Below, piece by piece: positions 1 to 10,383 of a DNA stretch of 11,565 nucleotides. Each line of letters starts with the position of its first letter. Within the stretch, counting starts at the first letter, position 1. Origin of the DNA: Candidatus Woesearchaeota archaeon (lineage in GTDB: Archaea; Nanobdellota; Nanobdellia; Pacearchaeales; GW2011-AR1); NCBI GenBank assembly GCA_964363345.1, contig CAYIHY010000021.1, forward strand, positions 1 to 11,565, read 5' to 3'. Both the position numbers and the translations under genes were made by a program. The notes under the pieces are model-generated. The model made no database searches. It was not told the origin of the DNA and worked only from the letters and a program-made list of their open reading frames with translations.

Positions 1-124
1 TTTGATATTTGTGTAAGGAGGGCGGTTTAGTGCGGATTTGTACTAATCACCTAATCTTAAAGATAAAATTGGCCGGGTAAGTAACGAGGAGACAAGAGGA
101 ATTTCTCTTGATGCGGGATTTGAA

Positions 125-574
125 GTGGGAGCGAGTTATGTAAGTGGGAGAGATAGTTTTAATATGAGGTTATATGAAGAAATGGGAGGAACAAACCCCC
201 TTTCTTGTGCTACTGGTTTAATAGGGGGAATATTATATGCTTCAAATAATCTTCCCTGGATTGTGCCGATTATTCCTAGTGTTTCTCTTTCAATGGAGTC
301 GAAAATAGGAGAATTTTCTTCTCGTGAGAAAGACACTTTTCCTTTGAGGATGTTTGCTGAATATGCTGGAGGATTAAGATATCTTTTGGACAGGAAGGAA
401 TTATCTTTTAACCATGAAGGAAGAATAGGATTTAGAGTAGGAAGTGCTCTTGGGAACCAATTGGAATTTTATGCAGGGATGGGAATTAATCAACATTTTG
501 GTAATTCTCATACTTCTGGGAAAGATGTTTATCTAACTTTTATGGGGGGGAGACGTATTTCCCTTCTACCCTAA
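125..574 (+). CDS. Hypothetical Gly/aromatic-rich protein with beta-strand-like alternation; possibly a truncated or decayed paralogue of the beta-barrel-like ORF at 1299..1874
   Basis: GTG-started 149-aa ORF from the track. The frame stays open back to TAA 44..46 but has no ATG/GTG/TTG there, and there is no TATA-like box at the usual 24-28 nt, so the true start is unclear. 'RIGFRVGSALGNQLEFYAGMGINQHFG' resembles the C-terminal strands of the 1299..1874 product ('VDLDLNYGINLNPFEG'). Antisense ORF 136..336 is treated as a shadow. Confidence 0.35.
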   Translation: MGASYVSGRDSFNMRLYEEMGGTNPLSCATGLIGGILYASNNLPWIVPIIPSVSLSMESKIGEFSSREKDTFPLRMFAEYAGGLRYLLDRKELSFNHEGRIGFRVGSALGNQLEFYAGMGINQHFGNSHTSGKDVYLTFMGGRRISLLP

Positions 575-582
575 ACTAAGTT

Positions 583-1248
583 TTAAAATTTATATCTTCC
601 CCTCTTTTCTACTACAGTTAATCTTTCAAGAACTTTTTTAGATTCTTTGTAATTCTCATAACCCTTTTTTATTTCACTAAATAAAATTTCCCAATTTTTG
701 AAATGCTTTGCTTCCAAAGCTTGTTTCAGCAAATGCAAATCAACTGCTTTGTCTTCTATTTTTGGAGAGATATATCCCAGCCCGAAATCGATAAAGAATA
801 TTTTAAAATTTTTAATCTTCTCTCCCCTGCCCACCCGCCCCCGAGGAAATTTTTTGTAAAAATTATCTTCATTTAAAATCATATTGCTTGTTGTTAAATC
901 GCCGTGAATTATATCTGCATTGTGAAGTTTTGAAATTTCTTCTCCGACTATCTTGCAGATTTCTTTTTGTTTTTTTAATGGAAGAGAATCTAACATTTGA
1001 GAAAGTTTTTCCCCTTCAATGAAAGGCATTTTTATTTTATCAAATTCTTCAAGTGGAAATGGATTTGGGGCGTTGATTATTTTGCAGGCTTTTTCAAGAA
1101 GTTTTTTTTCTGATTTTGTTCTTTGCTTTCTTATTTTTTCATCAATTTCTTTTAAACGGTAAGATTTCGAAATGCGGTCTTTTATGATAATATTATCTGA
1201 TAAAGTTATTTTTGCTTCTGCGCCTTGCGCAATAATCTTATTCGACAT
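583..1248 (-). CDS. bud32: Bud32 / Kae1-associated kinase (KEOPS subunit), with a ~20-aa insertion before the DFG motif
   Basis: 221-aa ORF. It has 'GAEA' near the N-terminus, catalytic loop 'IIHGDLTTSN', 'IDFGL', 'EDKAVDL' and a C-terminal 'RGRY' tail, which together are the archaeal/eukaryotic Bud32 signature set. ATG 1248 lies 25-26 nt from the TATA-like box 1270..1277. Confidence 0.9.
   Translation of the reverse strand: MSNKIIAQGAEAKITLSDNIIIKDRISKSYRLKEIDEKIRKQRTKSEKKLLEKACKIINAPNPFPLEEFDKIKMPFIEGEKLSQMLDSLPLKKQKEICKIVGEEISKLHNADIIHGDLTTSNMILNEDNFYKKFPRGRVGRGEKIKNFKIFFIDFGLGYISPKIEDKAVDLHLLKQALEAKHFKNWEILFSEIKKGYENYKESKKVLERLTVVEKRGRYKF
818..852. repeat. GC-rich ~33-nt repeat element, copy A, inside the bud32 CDS; the C-tracts on + form a G-quadruplex motif on the - (sense) strand
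   Basis: 'ttctctcccctgcccacccgcccccgaggaaattt' shares the blocks 'ccacccgccc' and 'gaggaaattt' at identical spacing with 6661..6693. The minus strand reads GGGGG-C-GGG-T-GGG-CA-GGGG (824..842). Confidence 0.6.
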
Positions 1249-1269
1249 ATTTATTCTTAAGCAATAATC

Positions 1270-1277
1270 TTTATATA
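1270..1277. promoter_or_regulatory. Shared TATA-like box of a bidirectional promoter (bud32 and the beta-barrel-like ORF)
   Basis: 'TTTATATA' is centred at 1273.5, the exact midpoint of the 50-nt intergenic region 1249..1298. It is 25-26 nt from both ATG 1248 (-) and ATG 1299 (+), and is flanked by the inverted pentamers 'TAATC'/'GATTA' (1265..1269 and 1278..1282). Confidence 0.5.
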
Positions 1278-1298
1278 GATTAAGATGGATTTTATTTT

Positions 1299-1874
1299 AT
1301 GCATCTGGGAAAATTAATTGCTCCACTAGCACTTGGACTTTCTTTATTAGTTCATCCAATTAAAGCAGAGGACCCCAAATATTTTATAGGGGCTCAATTT
1401 TGCAGTTATTCCTGGTCTTCAACTAATCTGGCAAAATATATCATAGATAGTCCAATGATAAAGGTTGGATTTGGGACAAATTTTAATTCTAATCTTGAAG
1501 GTAAATTTTCTGCAGGATATATGTTAAGCAAAAAGACTTTTTCAATTGGCGGAGGAGTGTCAGAAACAATAGATCTCAAAGCATTTTATTTAGAGGCAAT
1601 TGCGGATTATTCCATTCCTATTTTTAAAGGAGGAAAAGCTTATTTTGGTGCGGGCATTTCTGCTTTGACTGTGGATAATAAAATAACTGCAAGCAACGGA
1701 CAAGAAGCGAGCGAGAAAGATTCGTCTTTTGGAATCCCATTAAATATTGGATATACTGTTTCCCTAAATAATAAAGTAGATTTAGATTTGAACTATGGGA
1801 TTAATTTAAATCCTTTTGAAGGGCCTGATTTTTCAGGGTCTTTTGTTAACCTTGGAATTAGGTTCAATTTTTAA
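1299..1874 (+). CDS. Secreted small beta-barrel-like protein (resembles bacterial OmpA/OmpW/OMP_b-brl 8-strand porin-like proteins)
   Basis: 191-aa ORF. It has a Sec-type signal peptide 'MHLGKLIAPLALGLSLLVHPIKA|ED'. The mature part has repeated amphipathic strand patterns rich in Gly/Tyr/Phe/Asn ('KAYFGAGISALTV', 'FGIPLNIGYTVSL', 'VDLDLNYGINL') and ends with 'FVNLGIRFNF' (terminal Phe, beta-signal-like). Confidence 0.75.
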   Translation: MHLGKLIAPLALGLSLLVHPIKAEDPKYFIGAQFCSYSWSSTNLAKYIIDSPMIKVGFGTNFNSNLEGKFSAGYMLSKKTFSIGGGVSETIDLKAFYLEAIADYSIPIFKGGKAYFGAGISALTVDNKITASNGQEASEKDSSFGIPLNIGYTVSLNNKVDLDLNYGINLNPFEGPDFSGSFVNLGIRFNF

Positions 1875-2380
1875 GATTTTTTAAGTTCTTTTTTCATTTC
1901 AAAAAGAATATCGCTTCCTCTTTTTTCCAAAATCATCAACATTCTTTTTAATTGTCCCACCAAAACTTCTTTCTCTTTTTCATTTATTTTTTCCAAAGAA
2001 GAAAGTCTATTAAAAATATCTTTTTCAATTTTTACAAAATTAATTATTCTTCTTGATATTTTTGTTACATCAAAATAAAGCGGGCTTGACATCATAAGAA
2101 AATTTTTTCTTTCTTTTTTCATTTCCTCAACAACTTTTTTAATCATTTTATTATCTTCTGAAGATTCCAGTTTTCTAATCTGCTGTTTATACAACTTTGA
2201 ATTTTTTTCAATAGTATCAAGAATTTTTTCAAAGTAATCAAGTTTTCTTTTGAAGATTAAATCTTTTTTGCTGTATCTTGTTGTAAGCTGGTGATTTATC
2301 AATGGACCGATAGAGGCTCCAATAAGAACTCCGACTATCCCTGAAAGTGTTGGGATTAATTGTGAAAGTGTTTCTGTCAT
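1871..2380 (-). CDS. Hypothetical protein with an N-terminal transmembrane helix and a Lys/Glu-rich helical (coiled-coil-like) domain
   Basis: 169-aa ORF. The TM segment is 'LIPTLSGIVGVLIGASIGPLI', followed by a charged helical sequence. The TATA-like 'atttttaag' at 2401..2409 is 25 nt upstream of ATG 2380. Its stop overlaps the stop of 1299..1874 in 'TTAA' (1871..1874). Confidence 0.7.
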   Translation of the reverse strand: MTETLSQLIPTLSGIVGVLIGASIGPLINHQLTTRYSKKDLIFKRKLDYFEKILDTIEKNSKLYKQQIRKLESSEDNKMIKKVVEEMKKERKNFLMMSSPLYFDVTKISRRIINFVKIEKDIFNRLSSLEKINEKEKEVLVGQLKRMLMILEKRGSDILFEMKKELKKS

Positions 2381-2400
2381 AAAAGAATTTGAGGAAGAGG

Positions 2401-2409
2401 ATTTTTAAG
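2401..2409 (-). promoter_or_regulatory. TATA-like box for ORF 1871..2380
   Basis: A/T-rich box centred ~25 nt upstream of ATG 2380, the same spacing seen for most genes in the window. Confidence 0.4.
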
Positions 2410-2429
2410 AGTTGCGGAGGGGGAAAATG

Positions 2430-2452
2430 CAAAAATTTCTCCGAAATTTTTG
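2430..2452. repeat. Perfect 10-bp inverted repeat with a 3-nt loop (candidate operator or hairpin)
   Basis: 'CAAAAATTTC' (2430..2439) - 'tcc' - 'GAAATTTTTG' (2443..2452); the arms are exact reverse complements. Confidence 0.6.
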
Positions 2453-2461
2453 ATATGGATG

Positions 2462-2495
2462 AAAATTTTACCAGACTTCGTTAAGGTAAAATTTT
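2462..2495 (-). terminator. Perfect 11-bp stem / 12-nt loop hairpin 14 nt downstream of the TIR reading-frame stop; candidate terminator or RNA element
   Basis: 'AAAATTTTACC' (2462..2472) - 'agacttcgttaa' - 'GGTAAAATTTT' (2485..2495); exact reverse complements. The stem contains T4/A4 tracts, and archaeal termination uses oligo-T. Confidence 0.3.
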
Positions 2496-2508
2496 AGGGG
2501 GGAAGAAG

Positions 2509-3239
2509 TTATAAAGATAATTTCCCCAATTTTCTTATTAATTTTTCAACTATTTCTTTTAACTGTTCTTCTAAATCTTTTGTCTTGTCTAATTCTATTC
2601 CCCCGTACTTCTTTGTTTCATCAAACATTCCCAAAGGGGCGTCAGAAAACCAAATTGGAATTACTGCTTTTTCACCAAATCTTTCTTTAAATTGTTCGGA
2701 TTCAAATTTAGTCCATATTTTTTTGGGATAATCTTTACTTAATAAAACAATTACAAATTCTGCCTCTGATTTATAAATTGGTCCAAGATACTCTTCAACA
2801 TCTTCCGCGAGAATTTCAATTTCTTCATTTTTATCATAAAATACCTAAACTTCTTCTTCTTGAAATAATTCAAATAACCTCTTAGCAATACCTCCTCTTC
2901 TCCTGCAAAGGAAAGCGCGAAATCATATTTTGATTTGAATTCGTTTCTTATAAATCCAATTTGGTCTGAAAATTTTTTCCATAATAAATTTTTTAAATAA
3001 AATAAAAATTTTGGATCTTCAATCGCCAAAATCTTTGAATTTTCTTCATAATGTATAACCTTTGCTATTTCATTATTCTCTTTAATTAATCTCGATAAGA
3101 ACCCTTTTTCAGTTACTTGAATTATACTCCCCTTATATTCGGGGTGTTTAGATATGGCATCTTCTATCTGAATGGACCAATCATTATTTTGAGAAAGCCA
3201 ATATAATAGATGAAGATATGGGGCTTCTTCCCCCTCTTT
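2509..3239 (-). pseudogene. Downstream two-thirds of a disrupted AAA+ NTPase-TIR gene: winged-helix-like linker plus TIR domain, interrupted by a -1 frameshift (~2896..2901) and an in-frame TAG (2845..2847)
   Basis: Hand translation of the minus strand. The phase open over 3239..2754 gives '..EEAPYLHLLYWLSQNNDWSIQIEDAISKHPEYKGSIIQVTEKGFLSRLIKENNEIAKVIHYEENSKILAIEDPKFLFYLKNLLWKKFSDQIGFIRNEFKSKYDFALSFAGE'. The neighbouring phase from 2898 gives 'RGGIAKRLFELFQEEEV*VFYDKNEEIEILAEDVEEYLGPIYKSEAEFVIVLLSKDYPKKIWTKFESEQFKERFGEKAVIPIWFSDAPLGMFDETKKYGGIELDKTKDLEEQLKEIVEKLIRKLGKLSL', ending at TAA 2509..2511. This matches a TIR layout: 'YDFALSFAGE', 'VFYD', 'VIVLLSKDY..W...E'. The track ORF 2751..3029 is only the middle-phase fragment, and its tail after 'SFAGEEE' is out-of-frame read-through. 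Confidence 0.75.
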
Positions 3240-4005
3240 TCATTTTTGTGCCTATCGCAAATGCCCTAGCAGTGGAATAAAATGCTCTACTTAATTCCTC
3301 AGTAACTCTTTGTTTTATTACCTCTATCCCCGTAGAAATTATTTTTTTCTCTTCTTGCTCTTCAGTTACTTCACTGTACACGCATGCTTTATGACATAAT
3401 AGTTGAGCAAGATGGAAACTTCCTTGAGATAATTCAATTATCTCGTTTTTTGATTTTATAGATATATTCAGAGCTTGTTCTCCCAATTTAATTAATTCTT
3501 CTATTTTTTCTGGAGGATTTTTTTCAAATCTTATTGTGTCTATTCTATTGTTTAAATCTTGAGCAAATTTTACTAACGAATCTCCCGCCTTATTTATTCC
3601 AACAATTATTAATTTACTATTCTTTTCTTCATTATCTGCTAAAACTTTCATCAAATCGGCTAATTTCTTTTTAATTGACTCTTCTAAAATATGAAAGTCA
3701 TCTACTATAATTATTCCTATTTGAGTTTTCTTTTCAGATAACTCTTTTATCTTTTCAACTTCTTCTGCCTTTCGAGCAGATAAAATCTGATATCCAGTTA
3801 TTTTTAATTCTTCTATAACTTTTTTTATTCCTACTGTTTTGCCGATTCCCGAGGGGCCTTCAACTACTATCCCTCTCCCCGGAGTTCGTAATGCGACCAA
3901 TAATTCTGTGAATTGGATAGGTTTTACAAAAGTATAAGTTGGCATGCCCGATGTTTTGAAAACGTCTTCCACTTCTTTTTTATTATCTCTCATACTCTTT
4001 TTCAC
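3184..4005 (-). CDS. AAA+ P-loop NTPase (ExeA/TniB/ORC-like pattern); N-terminal module of the disrupted NTPase-TIR gene
   Basis: 273-aa ORF. It has Walker A 'GPSGIGKT' (3835..3858), Walker B 'IIIVDDFH', 'LIIVGINK' and 'SQGSFHLAQLLCH'. The last ~17 aa ('GRSPISSSIILAFSK') look like out-of-frame read-through after the G5 run at 3230..3234. The track start is GTG 4005, but ATG 3993 (MRDNKK..) fits the TATA spacing better. Confidence 0.85.
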   Translation of the reverse strand: MKKSMRDNKKEVEDVFKTSGMPTYTFVKPIQFTELLVALRTPGRGIVVEGPSGIGKTVGIKKVIEELKITGYQILSARKAEEVEKIKELSEKKTQIGIIIVDDFHILEESIKKKLADLMKVLADNEEKNSKLIIVGINKAGDSLVKFAQDLNNRIDTIRFEKNPPEKIEELIKLGEQALNISIKSKNEIIELSQGSFHLAQLLCHKACVYSEVTEEQEEKKIISTGIEVIKQRVTEELSRAFYSTARAFAIGTKMKRGGRSPISSSIILAFSK

Positions 4006-4010
4006 TTAAC

Positions 4011-4023
4011 TTTTATTTAAAAG
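4011..4023 (-). promoter_or_regulatory. TATA-like box for the AAA+ NTPase-TIR gene
   Basis: 'ttttatttaaaag' lies in the 28-nt gap between the SRP54 stop and the NTPase start. It is centred ~24 nt upstream of ATG 3993. Confidence 0.4.
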
Positions 4024-4033
4024 AATTATGGTT

Positions 4034-5404
4034 CTAAAATCTCATCTTTTTTCCGAACTTCTTTGCAAACTTCATCATTTGCTTTTGACTCATACCTTGC
4101 GACATATCCATTCCTGCTCCGCCAGATTTGACGACGTCATTTAGCAATTTATATTGCTTAAGCAAAGAACGAACATCACTCGTCGGAACTCCTGCACCTT
4201 TCGCTATTCTCGCCATTCTTGAAGTTTGTTTTTCCAGCAACTCTGGATTTTCTTTTTCTTCTTTTGTCATTGACTTAACAATATGTTCCCATCTCGCAAC
4301 TTTTGCTTCTTGATTTTCCAAAACTCCTTCTGGAATCTTCGCATCAATATTTGAAAGCCCAGGAATCATTGATTTTATTTTTTCAAATCCTCCTAATTGG
4401 GACATTGATTTAACCTGCTCAATAACATCATCAAGAGTTAATTTCCCCTCTTCAAGATTTTTCTGAATTTTCTTTTGATTTTTTTCTTCTGTAACTGATT
4501 TTATTTTTTCCATCAACGTTTCCAAATCGCCCATTCCTAAAAGTCTAGATAAGAAAGATTTTGGATTGAATTCTTCGATATCATTTATTTTTTCTCCTGT
4601 TGTAATAAAATAAACTGGCGCTTTTGTTTCTGCGCAGGCAGTAAGTGCTCCTCCTCCTTTCGCTGTTGAATCCATTCTTGTAATTATAACTCCTGAAACA
4701 TCAACTGCATCTTTGAACTGACTCGCCTGAGTTTTTGCTGCCTGTCCGATATCTGCAGGAATAATTAAAATAGAATTTGTCGGCTTTGCTTCTTTGGTAA
4801 TAGCTTTTATTTCTTTAATCAATTCATCATCTAATGTGTGCCTTCCTGCTGTGTCAATCAAAACCAAATCATAATCTTTCAACTGCTTTTCATATTTTTT
4901 CCAAAGTTTAACCGCATTTTTTTCAGAAGGGTCAACGAAATAATTTAATTTATTTTTTTCCGCGAGCTGCTGCAATTGTTCTGACGCTGCGGGACGATGA
5001 ACATCCAGCCCAATCATTGCAACTTTGAAACCGCGCTTTGCATAATAATTTCCGAGCTTTGCAGTTGTAGTTGTTTTTCCGCTACCATACAAACCAAGAA
5101 GTAAAATAACATTATGCTTTTCTGTTAATTTTAACTGCTTATATTCCCCGAGAATTCCTAAAAGCTCATCATGCAGGAGTTTGATTAAATGCTCTTTTTT
5201 TTCTATTCCTTTAACTCTTTTATCAAGCGCTGATTTTTTTATTTTGTCTGATAATTCTTTTACCAATGCAACATTAACATCGGCTTCAATTAATGCCCTC
5301 TGCAAATCGCGAACTATTGAATCGACTAAATCCTTGTCAAGAAAAATAGCATTCGCTATCTTGTCTGTTGCTTTTCTGATAACTTCGCCTAGTTTTTCAA
5401 GCAT
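4034..5404 (-). CDS. srp54: Signal recognition particle protein SRP54 (archaeal pattern)
   Basis: 456-aa ORF. It has N-terminal 'MLEKLGE', 'GLYGSGKTTT', 'DTAGR', 'TRMD', the 'LLGMGDLETL' hinge and an M domain with 'SMTKEEKENPELL'. By recall it resembles methanogen SRP54. It ends with TAG 4034..4036. Confidence 0.95.
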   Translation of the reverse strand: MLEKLGEVIRKATDKIANAIFLDKDLVDSIVRDLQRALIEADVNVALVKELSDKIKKSALDKRVKGIEKKEHLIKLLHDELLGILGEYKQLKLTEKHNVILLLGLYGSGKTTTTAKLGNYYAKRGFKVAMIGLDVHRPAASEQLQQLAEKNKLNYFVDPSEKNAVKLWKKYEKQLKDYDLVLIDTAGRHTLDDELIKEIKAITKEAKPTNSILIIPADIGQAAKTQASQFKDAVDVSGVIITRMDSTAKGGGALTACAETKAPVYFITTGEKINDIEEFNPKSFLSRLLGMGDLETLMEKIKSVTEEKNQKKIQKNLEEGKLTLDDVIEQVKSMSQLGGFEKIKSMIPGLSNIDAKIPEGVLENQEAKVARWEHIVKSMTKEEKENPELLEKQTSRMARIAKGAGVPTSDVRSLLKQYKLLNDVVKSGGAGMDMSQGMSQKQMMKFAKKFGKKMRF

Positions 5405-5426
5405 GTTTTATGAAGGAAAGAATGAG

Positions 5427-5437
5427 TTAATAAATTT
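5427..5437 (-). promoter_or_regulatory. TATA-like box for srp54
   Basis: 'ttaataaattt' is centred ~28 nt upstream of ATG 5404, within the 43-nt gap after the tgt stop. Confidence 0.4.
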
Positions 5438-5447
5438 GCGGTTTTAG

Positions 5448-6578
5448 TCATTTGTATTTTTCTTCAACTTCTTCAATAAATTCGTTTAATGTTCCATCAC
5501 GGATTTTTTCTTTTGCTTTTTCTATAAGTTTTGTCAGGAAATATAGATTATGATATGTTGCAAGATTTTTTCCTGTTGGTTCTTCATTAATTAACTGATA
5601 TCTTAAAAATGCTTTTGAATAATTTTTGCAAACAAAACAATCGCAGTTTTCATCTATTGGAGATTTGTCAAATTTGTATTTTTCATTTGTTATTTTTAAA
5701 TTTCCGTTTGAAGTAAAAAGAGTTCCGTGCCTCGCACTTTGAGTTGGCATTCTTGAATCAAATATATCTACCCCGAGAGCAATTCCTCTTAAGATTTCAA
5801 CAGGAGTTCCTATCCCCATTAAATAAATTGGCTTGGTTTCAGGAATGATTTTTTTTGCTAATTTTACTATATTAAATTCTTCTTCTATTGTTTCTCCTAA
5901 CCCAAAACCTCCTATAGAATATCCATCGAAATCTAATTCCAATGTATCACGAACTGATTTTTCTCTTAGTTCTTCAAAAATTCCCCCCTGATTTATTCCA
6001 AATAACAATTGTCTTTTTCCTTTCGGAACATTTTTCCATAATTTATCATGGTGAATCTTGCATCTTTTTGCCCACAAGGAAGTTTTTTCAACTGCTTCTT
6101 CAATTTCTTTTTTTGAATGTTCATACATAGGCATTGAATCCAAACACATTGCAACGTCGCTGTTTATGTCTGCTTGGATTTCCATATCTTTTTCCGGGGT
6201 TATGAATAATTTTTCCCCGTTGATTGGATTTCTGAAATGAATTCCTTCGTTTGTTGATTTTATGTAAATTCTTTTTGAATACATTTGGAATCCTCCGCAA
6301 TCAGTGAAGTTAATCCCCTTGAAATTCATGAACTTTCCAATTCCCCCAAATTTTTTTATTATTTCAGAGCCATCTCTTAAGTAAAGAATAAATGCATTTG
6401 AGATAACTGCCTGAGCTTTCATTTTTTCTATTTCTTGGGTTGTAAGTCCTTTTGTAACCCCTCGTGTTGCAACAGGCATGAAGAATGGAGTTTCAGCTTT
6501 TCCGCTTTTTGTTTTTAGAATTCCAATTCTTGCATTTGTATTTTTATCTTTGTGGGAAATTGTGAAACAGGATGACAT
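5448..6578 (-). CDS. tgt: tRNA-guanine transglycosylase, short bacterial/eukaryotic-type (Tgt-like) catalytic domain without arcTGT C-terminal domains
   Basis: 376-aa ORF. It has '[16 protein letters not shown]', 'FTDCGGFQ' (Asp102-equivalent), '[24 protein letters not shown]', 'YLMGIGTP', '[11 protein letters not shown]' (nucleophile Asp retained) and the zinc site 'CDCFVC...YHNL'. By recall these blocks align almost residue-for-residue with E. coli Tgt. Confidence 0.9.
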   Translation of the reverse strand: [376 protein letters not shown]

Positions 6579-6600
6579 ATAGAAAAATGGCGAAATGAGG

Positions 6601-6610
6601 ATATTTAAAT
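6601..6610 (-). promoter_or_regulatory. TATA-like box for tgt
   Basis: 'atatttaaat' is centred ~27 nt upstream of ATG 6578. Confidence 0.4.
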
Positions 6611-6660
6611 TATTCCCGCCACATTAAAAAGAGAAATAAATATTGTTCTGGCAAATTATT

Positions 6661-6693
6661 TTCTTTCCCGTCCACCCGCCCGAGAGGAAATTT
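6661..6693. repeat. GC-rich ~33-nt repeat element, copy B (intergenic, between the divergent tgt and ORF 6749)
   Basis: 'ttctttcccgtccacccgcccgagaggaaattt' shares 'ccacccgccc' and 'gaggaaattt' at the same spacing with 818..852. Translating its minus-strand frames found only a ~25-codon GTG ORF with no usable ribosome-binding spacing. Confidence 0.6.
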
Positions 6694-6717
6694 GGTATCA
6701 CCTCTTTTTTGTAATAA

Positions 6718-6726
6718 TATTTAAAA
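6718..6726 (+). promoter_or_regulatory. TATA-like box for ORF 6749..7309
   Basis: 'tatttaaaa' is centred ~27 nt upstream of ATG 6749. Confidence 0.4.
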
Positions 6727-6748
6727 GAAAAAGAATTCTTTATTTGTT

Positions 6749-7309
6749 ATGAATAAAAAAGGGAAATCTGGATTGAACACTATTTATTTAATCGTAGGGA
6801 TAATTGTGGGGATTATAGCAATTATAACTTTTTTTCTTGTTTGGGTTCTTCCTAATCTCGGTAAAGTTGTTAGTAATTCCAATGACCCATTTCAAATTTT
6901 AGTTTCTCCAACTTCTATTAATGAAGGACAATATGATAAGATTCCATTTACTATCACAATAATTCCCGATTCTAATTTAAATATAACCTCTTTTGAACTT
7001 CAGAGAAAAAATTTAATTGTAGAAAGATTAAATAAAAATTCTCAAACTTCTGTTTCTCAAGGGTTCTGTTTAACTACCAAATATTATTCTAGTTTAGAAT
7101 GTGGTTATGAGTCTCTTTTTAATTGTCCTCCTTCTAGTTGGGATAATGATTGTAATAAAAGATATGAAGCTTCTGTCGCTTTAGCAGGATGCCCCAATTG
7201 TTTTTATGGAAGTTCTTTTCCATACCAAATAACATTTAATATAATTTATTCAGAAGGCGGAATGAAAAAGACATTTACTAAACAAATACAAATCCCTATT
7301 ATTGATTAG
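6749..7309 (+). CDS. Membrane-anchored or pilin-like-signal protein with a Cys-rich extracytoplasmic domain (hypothetical)
   Basis: 186-aa ORF. The N-terminus 'MNKKGKSG|LNTIYLIVGIIVGIIAIITFFLV' has basic residues, then Gly, then a long hydrophobic stretch, which resembles a class III (type IV pilin-like) signal. Seven Cys fall within ~50 aa ('CLTT..ECGY..NCPP..DCNK..GCPNC'). It ends with TAG 7307..7309. Confidence 0.75.
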   Translation: MNKKGKSGLNTIYLIVGIIVGIIAIITFFLVWVLPNLGKVVSNSNDPFQILVSPTSINEGQYDKIPFTITIIPDSNLNITSFELQRKNLIVERLNKNSQTSVSQGFCLTTKYYSSLECGYESLFNCPPSSWDNDCNKRYEASVALAGCPNCFYGSSFPYQITFNIIYSEGGMKKTFTKQIQIPIID

Positions 7310-8428
7310 TTATAATCCCAATTTCTCAATGAACTTTTCTTTGCTAAATGGTTCTATCTTTTCATATTCCTGTCCTGTGCCGAGATAGAAAATCGGTTTT
7401 TTTGTTACATAGCCGACACTGAGTGCTGTTCCGCCTTTTTCATCAATATCTGCTTTTGTCAAGACAATTCCATCAATTCCAATTGCTTCATCAAAACTTC
7501 TTACTTGTTCAATTGCATCGTTTCCAGTTATGCTTTCTCCGACAAAAATCTTTTTATCTGGCTTGCAGACTTTCACAATTTTTTCCATTTCTCTTAAAAG
7601 ATTTTTTTGTGTGTGCATTCTTCCTGCTGTGTCAATTAAAACGCAGTTAATTGAATTCTTTTTTGCATATTGCACTGCATCAAATCCTACTGCTGCGGGG
7701 TCTGCTCCGTAATCATGAGCAATTACTTTAACGCCGATTTTTTCTCCGTGAGTTTTTATCTGTTCAATTGATGCTGCTCTGAAAGTATCTCCTGCTGCGA
7801 TGACACAAGAAATTTTTTTACTTTTCAAATGCTCTGCAATTTTTGCGATTGTTGTTGTCTTTCCGCTCCCATTTATTCCGCAGAATAAAATAATATAAGG
7901 CTCCTTTTTTTCTCCAAGCAAATTTTTTTCTTTAATTTCTTCAATCAAGTCAGGCGGTGAAATTAAAATTTCCCTAATAATATCTCCGAAAGAAGATTTA
8001 ATCTCTGATTCTATTTCTTTTTTCAAAAGTTCTTTCCCCACTATTTTTTCTTTTAATTCTTTAACCATTTTTTCAGCAACTTCTAATGCAACATTATTCT
8101 CAAGAAGCAGAGTTTCCAATTCCTCACTATAAACATCAAATTCTTTTTCAGAAATCTTTACCTTGGAAATCTTCTCACCAAACTTCTGGAAAATATTTTT
8201 TACTTCCTCTTCAGGCTCTTCCTCTTCAACTACCTTGATTTTCTCTTTATCTTTTTTCTTTTCTTCTTTTTTCTGTTTTGTTTCTTCTTTCTTTTTAGTT
8301 TTCTTTTCTGCTTTCAGCTCTTTTTTTACTTTTTTTTCAATTTCCTTTTCTTCTTTTTCAGTTTCTTCTGAACCTTTAACTAAATTTTTTGTCCAATCTT
8401 TTAGTTTTTCCCTTAATTTTCCAAACAT
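7310..8428 (-). CDS. ftsY: Signal recognition particle receptor FtsY
   Basis: 372-aa ORF. It has a Lys/Glu-rich N-terminal A domain and an NG domain with 'GINGSGKTTT', 'DTAGR' and 'TKADIDEKGG'. The stop codon abuts the stop of 6749..7309 with zero intergenic bases. Confidence 0.95.
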   Translation of the reverse strand: MFGKLREKLKDWTKNLVKGSEETEKEEKEIEKKVKKELKAEKKTKKKEETKQKKEEKKKDKEKIKVVEEEEPEEEVKNIFQKFGEKISKVKISEKEFDVYSEELETLLLENNVALEVAEKMVKELKEKIVGKELLKKEIESEIKSSFGDIIREILISPPDLIEEIKEKNLLGEKKEPYIILFCGINGSGKTTTIAKIAEHLKSKKISCVIAAGDTFRAASIEQIKTHGEKIGVKVIAHDYGADPAAVGFDAVQYAKKNSINCVLIDTAGRMHTQKNLLREMEKIVKVCKPDKKIFVGESITGNDAIEQVRSFDEAIGIDGIVLTKADIDEKGGTALSVGYVTKKPIFYLGTGQEYEKIEPFSKEKFIEKLGL

Positions 8429-8447
8429 AAATATGGAAGATAAGGAG

Positions 8448-8456
8448 AATTTATAT
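8448..8456 (-). promoter_or_regulatory. TATA-like box for ftsY
   Basis: 'aatttatat' is centred ~24 nt upstream of ATG 8428. Confidence 0.4.
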
Positions 8457-8528
8457 GGTTTTCTGGGGAGATATAAATTTTTATAAAGAAGTTTATCCTT
8501 TGAAAAATATGAAAAGAGGACTATTAGA

Positions 8529-9773
8529 ATGAAGGGGATTTTGGTAATTGTTGATGGAATGGGGGATTTGCCTAACTCTCAACTTAGAGAAAAGACGCCT
8601 CTTGAGGTTGCTCACATGCCCAATGCGAATTTTTTGGCCAGCAGGGGAGAATTGGGATATATGTATCCTGTGAAACCGGGTTTTATTCCCGAATCTGACG
8701 AGTCTATTGTTTCTATTTTTGGCAATGAATTAATTTCCAGCACAAGAGGACAGCTTGAGGCAAGAGGAACAGACGTTAAATTAGTAAGAGGAGATTTAGC
8801 TTGGAGAGCTAATTTTGCAACTATTGATTCTTTGAAGGGTGGAAATATTATAGACAGACGGGCAGGAAGAACCTTGAGCACTTCTGAAGCAGAGGCACTG
8901 GCTAAAGCACTGAATAAAAATATAAAACTTTCAGCCCCATTTATTTTCAAACCTACAATCGGGCATAGGGGGGCTTTGGTTTTTAAGGGGGGATTTTCAG
9001 ATAATATTTCGGGAAATGATAATGTTTATTCAATGGGGAAGACAACTATCTCGGGGAAAATAAATTTGTGCAGGCCCCTTGATGAAGAGGATAATTCACA
9101 ATACACTGCAAATGTTGTTAACGAATTTTTGGAAAAATCTTTTGAAGTTTTAAATCATCATCCAATAAATGAGGAGAGGAGAAGAAAGGGATTACTTCCT
9201 GCAAATTATATTTTGGTTCGGGGCGGTGGAATTGAATCTCCTAAATTAAAGCAATATAAAAAATGGGTTTCTGCAGCTTACATGCCTTTGGAAATTGGTT
9301 TTTCGAGAACTGCGGGAATGAAAACTTTTTCTTTTGATTATCCTAAATTGAAAAAAATTGATGTTTATGCCAATCTCTATGAAGGACTTGCGAAAGCGTG
9401 CAAATTTTCTATTTGGGTTTTGAGAAAGAACAGAAAAAAAGCAGATTACGCTTACATTCATATTAAAGAAACAGATTTGCCTGGCCACGACGGGAAACCC
9501 TTTGAAAAAAAAGAAATGCTCGAGTATATTGATAAGACTCTTTTTAATTTTCTTAGAAAATTTTGTCCCCCCAACAAAATAAAAGTTGTAATAACTGCTG
9601 ATCATGCGACTCCGTGCAAACTTAAATCTCATTCAGCTGATCCGGTTCCTGTTCTTTTTTATAATGGTTCAATTCCAAAAGAGAGAAAGTTCAATGAAAT
9701 TGAAGCAAGAAAAGGAACTCTTGGAAGAATTAATGGAAAGGAACTTTTGGTCAAAGTTGGATTTAATAAATAA
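8529..9773 (+). CDS. apgM: 2,3-bisphosphoglycerate-independent phosphoglycerate mutase, archaeal type (ApgM)
   Basis: 414-aa ORF. It has 'ILVIVDGMGD' at the N-terminus, 'IKETDLPGHDG' and 'ITADHATP', the metal/phospho-Ser superfamily motifs typical of ApgM. 'AAGAGGA' at 8514..8520 lies 8 nt before the ATG. Confidence 0.9.
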   Translation: MKGILVIVDGMGDLPNSQLREKTPLEVAHMPNANFLASRGELGYMYPVKPGFIPESDESIVSIFGNELISSTRGQLEARGTDVKLVRGDLAWRANFATIDSLKGGNIIDRRAGRTLSTSEAEALAKALNKNIKLSAPFIFKPTIGHRGALVFKGGFSDNISGNDNVYSMGKTTISGKINLCRPLDEEDNSQYTANVVNEFLEKSFEVLNHHPINEERRRKGLLPANYILVRGGGIESPKLKQYKKWVSAAYMPLEIGFSRTAGMKTFSFDYPKLKKIDVYANLYEGLAKACKFSIWVLRKNRKKADYAYIHIKETDLPGHDGKPFEKKEMLEYIDKTLFNFLRKFCPPNKIKVVITADHATPCKLKSHSADPVPVLFYNGSIPKERKFNEIEARKGTLGRINGKELLVKVGFNK

Positions 9774-9808
9774 AAATAAAAAAATAAAATTAAATAAGTA
9801 TTTTATTA

Positions 9809-10228
9809 TTAATCCTGATTATATTTTTCAAATACTCTGGTTAAATCTTTAACAGAAACCTCTTCTCCACTTTGATATTCTACTCTCGGAAAATTTTTGA
9901 TATGTACATTAAGATGTGAGGGTTCATCTGGTCTTATTATCATATCATTCTCTTTTAATATTTCATATGTTAAATCTTCCTGTTCTCTACTGGAGATAAC
10001 TCTATCTCTATTCTGATCTGCATATTTATGCACTACCTCATTATGGGTTCTTTCAAATTTCTGCTCCTCCACTTTGGAACTCATGCCCCAAATTCCAATT
10101 CCTATCATAGCCGCAACAAGAGACCATCCAACAATTCCAAACCCTATCATAGCTCTGTTAGAGACTTCAGCTTCTGGGGGGGCTGAAACTATTTCGTTAT
10201 ATCGTCTGTCGAATTCTTCTTTACTCAT
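9809..10228 (-). CDS. Hypothetical single-pass membrane protein with an EF-hand-like loop
   Basis: The track ORF starts at ATG 10249 (MKGGYCK..). The second ATG at 10228 (MSKEEF..) is preceded by 'AAGGAGGA' with a 9-nt spacer, and an A/T box at 10253..10264 sits ~25-30 nt upstream, so 10228 is preferred. The TM segment is 'MIGFGIVGWSLVAAMIGIGIWGM'. The loop 'DQNRDRVISSRE' is at 9983..10018. Confidence 0.7.
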   Translation of the reverse strand: MSKEEFDRRYNEIVSAPPEAEVSNRAMIGFGIVGWSLVAAMIGIGIWGMSSKVEEQKFERTHNEVVHKYADQNRDRVISSREQEDLTYEILKENDMIIRPDEPSHLNVHIKNFPRVEYQSGEEVSVKDLTRVFEKYNQD

Positions 10229-10383
10229 TTTACAATATCCTCCTTTCATTTCTATAATTATTATTGAACTTTTTCATTATTTTGCCAAGCACCCCCCCCT
10301 TAAAAATCTTACTAAGTGTAACTACTATAAAATTAATCTGACTTTGAATCTTTAATAAATGATATTTTATCATACGGAAATTG

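Follow-up and report, generated by a model that had tools for sequence, protein, structure and literature searches.

The stretch of DNA considered here, hereafter the window, is the whole 11,565-nt sequence at positions 1 to 11,565 of contig CAYIHY010000021.1, assigned to a Candidatus Woesearchaeota archaeon, a small inhabitant of groundwater. On its minus strand, at 3993..2509, it carries what is very probably a real and recent pseudogene, namely a recently inactivated copy of a single-gene protein that combines an AAA+ ATPase, a lid, a winged helix and a TIR domain. The pseudogene itself is ordinary, and the family of ~495 amino acids (aa) from which it derives is a good and easily testable defence candidate. 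The chances are about even that this family is an unrecognised, very widespread, single-gene antiviral system that moves among prophages, several bacterial phyla, and DPANN archaea.

Six-frame translation of the minus strand yields a single protein of ~494 aa distributed over three frame segments, which reproduces the protein assembled by hand in the initial annotation, and the repaired protein retrieves full-length homologues. The program that lists open reading frames (ORFs) reports only a 273-aa ORF (3184..4005) and a 92-aa ORF with a TTG start (2751..3029) here on this strand; the decayed gene thus leaves "empty" stretches that the ORF track does not explain. The segments and their landmarks are as follows.

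3230..3993, minus strand: segment 1, in the original frame, encoding the AAA+ ATPase core with its lid (six-frame translation; Pfam AAA and nSTAND3)
2898..3224, minus strand: segment 2, encoding the winged-helix region and a linker in a frame other than that of the start, reading APYLHLLYWLSQNNDW ... KYDFALSFAGE (six-frame translation)
2509..2892, minus strand: segment 3, TIR domain, reading GIAKRLFELFQEEEV(stop)VFYDKNEE ... IWTKFESEQF ..., to the TAA at 2509..2511 (Pfam TIR_2, residues 362-483)
3991..3993, minus strand: probable start codon ATG, near the orthologue start MGRELQDVF; the 269-aa product of gene callers starts here on independent contigs
3835..3858, minus strand: Walker A motif GPSGIGKT, invariant in 37 homologues
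3691..3708, minus strand: Walker B motif IVDDFH (within IIIVDDFH), in which D96, D97, F98, and H99 are invariant
2701..2703, minus strand: GAA codon in WTKFE, the Glu at the catalytic position of TIR NADases, aligned with WTNYE of AbTir and invariant (E429 of the orthologue P0001)

The open frame of segment 1 continues out of register to a TAA at 3184, and segment 3, which is back in the frame of segment 1, holds both an in-frame TAG and the WTKFE motif. The GTG at 4003..4005 is an alternative start chosen by the ORF lister and carried into the initial annotation; according to the orthologue alignment, the ATG at 3993..3991 is likelier. A look-up of the 273-aa GTG-start product returned no match, and the shortened 269-aa ATG-start product is on record on five contigs. 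An open stretch of 110 codons would arise with a probability of ~9e-5 at the local base composition, and the repaired protein matches full-length homologues with E-values down to 1e-252; homology is the much stronger support for a single gene. The G+C content of the gene is 30.5%, and both its G+C and its G+C at third codon positions match the genome.

The initial annotation had proposed a search of related archaea for intact, contiguous orthologues, and one exists. The best match, P0001, is an intact protein of 490 aa with 81% identity, encoded on the European Nucleotide Archive (ENA) contig L001. It lies directly after TGT and SRP54, in the same TGT-SRP54-gene order as in the window, and the two regions are colinear with 79% nucleotide identity. 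DNA alignment with L001 defines three lesions in the window copy; all three recur in a further contig, L112, and the first also in L119.

3225..3229, minus strand: lesion 1, one-base insertion, an extra A (GGGGGAAGAAGCC versus GGGGGAAGAGCC), also in L112 and L119
2893..2897, minus strand: lesion 2, one-base deletion, after which reading returns to the original frame, also in L112
2845..2847, minus strand: lesion 3, in-frame TAG nonsense codon, CAA (Gln) in the orthologue, also in L112

These placements amend the earlier repair. The first frameshift, previously ascribed to an extra G within 3230..3234, is instead an extra A; for the second, a missing base is borne out, and its place lies at 2893..2897 and not after 2899. 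The TAG, which had been read as Lys, aligns with Gln and reflects a CAG/CAA to TAG change. Removal of the extra A at lesion 1 gives back the family-invariant Gly-Arg (KRGGRAPYLH), and reading lesion 2 as GAG-(A)GA gives back the invariant Arg of SFAGEER; both motifs are recovered by the orthologue-guided repair and not by the earlier one. After this repair, 102-103 of the 105 family-invariant positions are kept.

The same lesions are found in material assembled separately. Contig L112 (Hain_H52_01um_R2, 9,502 bp), assembled from a different ENA sample, matches window 765..10266 with 100% identity and contains all three lesions. In L119, which Logan assembled from run ERR3858111, the sequence of 2896..5104 is unchanged, lesion 1 included. 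Since the lesions are repeated in a separately assembled contig, they point to a real pseudogene and not to a hidden working gene, and a sequencing artefact is largely ruled out by these identical, independent contigs. An intact gene in the organism, with both indels and the TAG introduced as errors of sequencing or assembly, is accordingly improbable. Long homopolymers are absent from all three lesion sites, and seven other genes of the window (SRP54, TGT, FtsY, ApgM, GINS, a RIO-type kinase, and a 169-aa gene) have the lengths of their orthologues. What speaks for such errors is the strength of conservation, as nearly all invariant residues are kept and the ratio of nonsynonymous to synonymous substitution rates (dN/dS) is low, on a par with that of the essential genes alongside. 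Relative to L001, dN/dS is 0.118 overall and 0.115, 0.066, and 0.193 in segments 1, 2, and 3, respectively, with dS ~1, compared with 0.068 for SRP54 and 0.162 for TGT. By our own estimate, one more indel and one nonsense mutation would accompany only ~1% neutral change after inactivation, an amount invisible in dN/dS because dS is ~1. On the low ratio and the retained invariant residues, the inactivation is recent. No near-identical or intact alleles were found in Joint Genome Institute (JGI) metagenomes, in which only two distant TIR-only matches occur.

Several observations weigh against the interpretation as a decayed immune gene. The low dN/dS fits an intact gene with sequence errors equally well. 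The confirming contig L112 has only ~5x coverage and was sampled in the same aquifer well (Hainich H52). The end of contig L119 coincides exactly with lesion 2, and as breaks in Logan contigs can mark variant sites, the site of lesion 2 may be polymorphic in the population. For the family as a whole, a literature search found no experiment on any member.

The initial annotation described a hidden gene, which implies function; the copy is instead dead, as the TAG is a true stop, the out-of-frame segment is not readable through, and the lesions are present in an independent assembly. TAG as a sense codon is ruled out, because srp54, the ORF at 6749..7309, and the GINS gene of the window all end at TAG. 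The same three stops also bear on programmed recoding, whereby opposite shifts (+1 and -1) and read-through of the TAG would yield the whole product. The +1 and -1 changes do cancel and bring the TIR segment back into the original frame; on the other hand, three separate recoding events would be required, the orthologue and >2,000 homologues are plain continuous ORFs, and neither conserved shift sites in other genomes nor a full-length product of ~57 kDa was seen, which makes this scenario barely credible. In the window, at most a 269-aa ATPase fragment can be made, with no TIR. That this remaining ATPase-only ORF (3993..3184) retains a function of its own, without winged helix and TIR, is very improbable. 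A promoter-like box, the start codon, and the Walker A and B motifs are kept, and ATPase-only relatives of 200-300 aa appear in a representative search, many of which may be fragments. The last 14 residues of the 269-aa product are nonetheless out-of-frame junk, and conservation of segments 2 and 3 matches that of segment 1, the pattern left by a break too recent for selection to have shaped a new role. Old ATPase-only orthologues are likewise absent from the stretches searched around srp54 at 85 related archaeal loci (6-10 kb each, less where contigs end). A recent pseudogene therefore remains the preferred reading of the window copy.

The initial annotation placed an NTPase, a winged-helix-like region, and a TIR domain in one gene, and this architecture is confirmed by Pfam matches above cut-off, a structure model, and fold matches. 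In the repaired protein, TIR_2 (PF13676) scores 29.0 bits (cut-off 28), AAA 28.5 bits (21.2), and nSTAND3 28.2 bits (27.2). The TIR_2 match (residues 362-483) spans lesions 2 and 3, and the nSTAND3 match is partial, confined to positions 19-107 of a 155-position profile. The 495-aa protein has no repeat domain. An AlphaFold2 model of intact P0001, built from 37 homologues, has a predicted local distance difference test score (pLDDT) of 85.6 and a predicted template modelling score (pTM) of 0.75, and its residues 256-342 form helices with a beta-hairpin wing. The best Protein Data Bank matches of this model in Foldseek are ORC1 (5zr1_A, 7tjf_A), archaeal Cdc6/Orc (1fnn, 1w5t, 2v1u), subunits of replication factor C (RFC), and RuvB, with E-values of 7e-9 to 1e-6; Apaf-1 or NLR proteins are not the best folds. 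These matches indicate an AAA+ protein of the initiator or clamp-loader type with a lid and a winged helix, and its assignment to AAA+ is based on Walker A, Walker B, the AAA profile, and matches to a core-plus-lid fold. Members of the family thus consist of an ORC/Cdc6-like AAA+ domain with its lid, followed by a winged helix and, at the C-terminus, the TIR domain.

Among solved structures, the sequence of the TIR domain comes closest to 7uxr and AbTir (7uwg/8g83), with E-values of 1e-6 to 2e-5. Invariant in the 37 homologues are Walker A, DDFH, N132, and R148 (P0001 numbering), together with the lid motif GSF-H and the TIR motifs YDFALSFA, FYD, and W..FE. Judging from their positions, N132 is predicted to be sensor 1 and R148 the arginine finger. 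The Glu at 2701..2703, singled out early as the catalytic residue, is indeed a GAA codon that aligns with the AbTir Glu and is invariant among these homologues.

The combination of NTPase and TIR is not rare, with >2,000 near-full-length homologues of ~495 aa (54-81% identity, 97% coverage). The repaired protein matches >2,200 proteins, which are mostly bacterial; the best 120 of them are ~490-520 aa long, with 53-81% identity and 94-99% query coverage, and for most homologues PF13676 is precomputed. Members from Bacteroidota, Paenibacillus, Elusimicrobium, P2-like prophages of E. coli, and a DPANN archaeon are 46-61% identical; the family is highly conserved, and its distribution across phyla is patchy. 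Across 25 bacterial and viral loci there is no conserved neighbour or partner gene, which implies that the gene travels alone. An alignment-based scan found the family on 23 IMG/VR contigs; a single-protein scan of viral contigs with P0001 gave no match, and the GenBank phage collection contained no full-length member.

The P2-like prophage loci that bear the family are L111 and L094-L106. In those examined (IMG/VR L095; E. coli), the gene is flanked by the tail-completion/virion-morphogenesis genes on one side and the baseplate V gene on the other, which is a moron slot; in phage P2 itself, the non-essential orf30 occupies this place. The E. coli copy, WP_047644722.1 (L111 6983..8509; strain E7-1N7, NZ_CP134805, 2033512..2035038), is 46% identical to P0001 over its full length and bears only the RefSeq label "AAA family ATPase"; two of 5,426 complete E. 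coli genomes have a family member. In Paenibacillus (CAAFUF010000003.1, L003 7795..12936), a TIR-rich island lies directly downstream of the family member, with three ThsB_TIR genes, a 671-aa protein with TIR_2 and LD_cluster2 (SLOG-like), and another TIR_2 protein. An exhaustive search with the ATPase ORF returned 1,236 clusters, in many of which the module lies within proteins of 600-2,000 aa. A TIR domain is present in all ten of the ATPase-module proteins sampled, and some of the ten have added domains, namely extra TIRs, a caspase, a receiver domain, a LacI-type helix-turn-helix (HTH), or NB-ARC with TPR. Large fusions of the module are listed below; taken with the lone gene, the prophage copies, and the Paenibacillus island, they form the signature of a biological-conflict module.

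P0165: TIR with NB-ARC and TPR, 1,577 aa
P0169: caspase with TIR, 1,004 aa
P0146: receiver domain, 666 aa
P0144: LacI-type HTH, 564 aa

Both the defence role of the family and its NADase activity are predicted from homology and context. TIR NADases need self-association for activity, as in SARM1, plant TNLs, TIR-SAVED, and SPARTA. In the mechanism that is most likely for intact members, nucleoside triphosphate (NTP)-dependent oligomerisation would switch on cleavage of nicotinamide adenine dinucleotide (NAD+) by the TIR domain. The AAA+/winged-helix module would act as an NTP-dependent sensor and switch; a virus-derived cue would induce oligomerisation and bring the TIR domains together, and the paired TIRs would form active sites that cleave NAD+. 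The outcome could be NAD+ depletion (abortive infection) or a signal of the cyclic ADP-ribose type; for an AbTir-like TIR, the choice between NAD+ depletion and cyclic ADP-ribose isomers is not predictable from sequence. The winged helix suggests that the trigger may be a nucleic acid or a phage protein. An unlikely but not negligible alternative is that the family is not an immune effector but acts in DNA replication or regulation, or serves phages against their hosts, with an incidental TIR domain. Such a role would suit the structural resemblance to replication initiators and clamp loaders, the phage-borne copies, and the fact that the family role is drawn from homology and context. It is countered by a score of 8.6 bits against a cut-off of 181 for the NCBIfam orc1/cdc6 model, by the patchy distribution across phyla and the high conservation of the family, and by the moron position in P2-like prophages. 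The adjoining ThsB-type TIR genes, the fusions to caspase, NB-ARC/TPR, and extra TIRs, and the invariant catalytic Glu argue in the same direction, and a role in defence is thus preferred for the family.

The place of the gene in the archaeal chromosome was surveyed over 80 related loci gathered with an SRP54 query (SRP54 identity 71-88%; almost all under the names Pacearchaeota, Nanoarchaeota or Woesearchaeota) and five closer contigs. No relative of the gene was found by tblastn in the srp54 flanks of the 80 loci, up to 6 kb on each side, or among the called genes of the five closer contigs, in line with the earlier view of an insertion among housekeeping genes that is unusual for the lineage. 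The interval from srp54 to the conserved 169-aa gene (window 2381..4033) is variable, with different cargo or nothing in relatives, and behaves as a small accessory-gene hotspot. The contents of this slot in other contigs, and the promoter-like element of the window, are as follows.

L009 slot: ~170 bp, empty
L007 slot: a 159-aa ORF
L010 slot: a 147-aa membrane ORF
L008 slot: a 156-aa and a 452-aa ORF
L114 slot: a 47-aa and a 151-aa gene
L116 slot: a 129-aa gene
L117 and L118 slot: a 227-aa gene and a UDG-like gene
4014..4022 of the window, minus strand: TATA-like box TTTTAAATA, ~25 nt upstream of the ATG at 3993

Around the TATA-like box, ~20 nt are conserved in L001 and L007. The initial annotation had credited the gene with its own box; in L007 this sequence also stands after srp54, although the gene in the slot is a different, unrelated one whose ATG lies at the same distance from the box. 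Because it is shared with a contig of unrelated cargo, the box belongs to the slot and not to the gene, and it may serve as a resident promoter-like element of the slot. There is no mobile-element signature around the insertion, with no flanking repeats beyond short matches at chance level and no terminator-like sites. Among the SRP54 loci, L022 (DATKUW010000047.1) and L041 (DATJPO010000003.1), whose SRP54 is 73-75% identical, are deposited as metagenome-assembled genomes of a "Bacillota bacterium" and a "Candidatus Omnitrophota bacterium", and are probably mis-binned archaeal contigs.

Under the history proposed here, the gene would have come by horizontal transfer, most likely from bacteria, and entered the variable slot immediately after srp54 before the Pacearchaeota-like lineage of the window and the L001 lineage parted from their common ancestor. 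It would then have been under purifying selection for nearly all of the divergence of the two lineages, before being disabled in the population of the window by the +1 insertion, the -1 deletion, and the Gln-to-TAG nonsense change. If this is true and the family is indeed an antiviral system, the window records capture by a Pacearchaeota-like lineage followed by recent loss, and TIR-based immunity would be within the flexible gene pool of ultra-small archaea; for DPANN archaea, the variable slot beside srp54 would offer a dated example of a bacterial-type immune gene gained and then lost. The family is large and strongly conserved, and it couples an initiator-type AAA+ switch to a putative TIR NADase without a repeat sensor. 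If it is a defence system, it would provide a compact new model of TIR activation by ATPase-driven assembly, and the E. coli prophage copy WP_047644722.1 makes the defence idea directly testable.

Two other genes of the window are recorded here as separate observations. The first is a 191-aa ORF at 1299..1874 (plus strand), whose N-terminus resembles a signal peptide and whose last residues are GIRFNF. Its Pfam match is to OMP_b-brl (45 bits, cut-off 28.7), a family of beta-barrels from bacterial outer membranes, yet the ORF is part of an archaeal syntenic block. It is kept at 81-85% identity between the RIO-type kinase and the 168/169-aa gene on at least four related archaeal contigs; L007 and other more distant relatives lack it. 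The ORF at 125..574 (plus strand, 149 aa) has no Pfam match, and its 205-aa orthologue, P0276, starts with a signal peptide. Homology of this ORF extends upstream to nt 47, where it ends at an in-frame stop codon, and the signal-peptide-like residues KEGGLVRICT are found in another frame at approximately nt 9-40. Contig L113 and the window begin at the same base, and window 1..574 is either a second decayed gene or a contig-edge artefact.

Comparison with known systems agrees with the initial statement that this is not a named defence system: Pfam, NCBIfam, and PADLOC return none, an NCBIfam search of the repaired protein gives nothing above cut-offs, and a literature search found no description of an AAA+/winged-helix/TIR architecture. 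The nearest catalogue entries are PADLOC PDC-S59 and PDC-S66, both catalogued as "phage defence candidates", each of which covers only half of the sequence. The ATPase, lid, and winged helix (residues 98-338) match PDC-S59 with an E-value of 4.9e-19, and the TIR domain matches PDC-S66 with an E-value of 9.5e-9; intact homologues show the same pattern, and over all proteins compared the PDC-S59 E-values run from 4.9e-19 to 2e-21. Of the 428 positions of the PDC-S59 profile, which is without TIR, only ~136-401 align and the first ~150 are unmatched, so that it is a related module and not the same architecture. No paper mentioning PDC-S59 was found in the literature search.

TIR-NLR and Avs proteins resemble the family in coupling an oligomerising NTPase to a TIR effector in a single polypeptide, and the gene described here has a borderline, partial Pfam nSTAND3 match. 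They differ in that the TIR domain is C-terminal here (reversed order), there is no TPR or other repeat sensor, the protein has only ~495 aa, and its fold is nearer to ORC/Cdc6 and RFC than to STAND. PADLOC gives no TIR-NLR or Avs match at E <= 1 for the repaired protein or at E <= 0.01 for intact homologues. TIR-NLR and Avs proteins such as Rst_TIR-NLR are, like members of the family, borne by mobile elements, namely prophages and satellites; the TIR-NLR and the P2 hotspots described there differ from those found here (Rousset, 2022; PMC9122126).

The TIR domains of AbTir and BtTir (7uwg, 8g83, 7uxr) align with that of the family at the YDxFISxA, VWYD, and W..YE motifs and at the catalytic Glu; in contrast, these proteins are without the AAA+/winged-helix module, and identity is low. 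Thoeris is approached through a weak PADLOC match to ThsB1 (E 9e-5; P0001 3e-7) and through the one family member that lies beside ThsB genes, in Paenibacillus. ThsB, however, is a stand-alone TIR protein that signals to the effector ThsA; there is no ThsA-like gene in the window and no partner conserved over the 25 loci, and identity with Thoeris is ruled out by the lack of ThsA.

Archaeal Orc1/Cdc6 shares the order of AAA+ base, lid, and winged helix, and its structures 1fnn, 1w5t, and 2v1u are among the top Foldseek matches. Identity with a replication Orc1/Cdc6 is ruled out, as the corresponding models stay far below cut-off (TIGR02928, 8.6 bits against 181.3; PRK00411, 10.5 bits against 417), and the resemblance is at the level of the fold only. 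At the sensor-2 position, GSFH is found here and GDAR in Orc1/Cdc6. The family differs further from these initiators in its fused TIR domain, and the gene described here is an accessory one.

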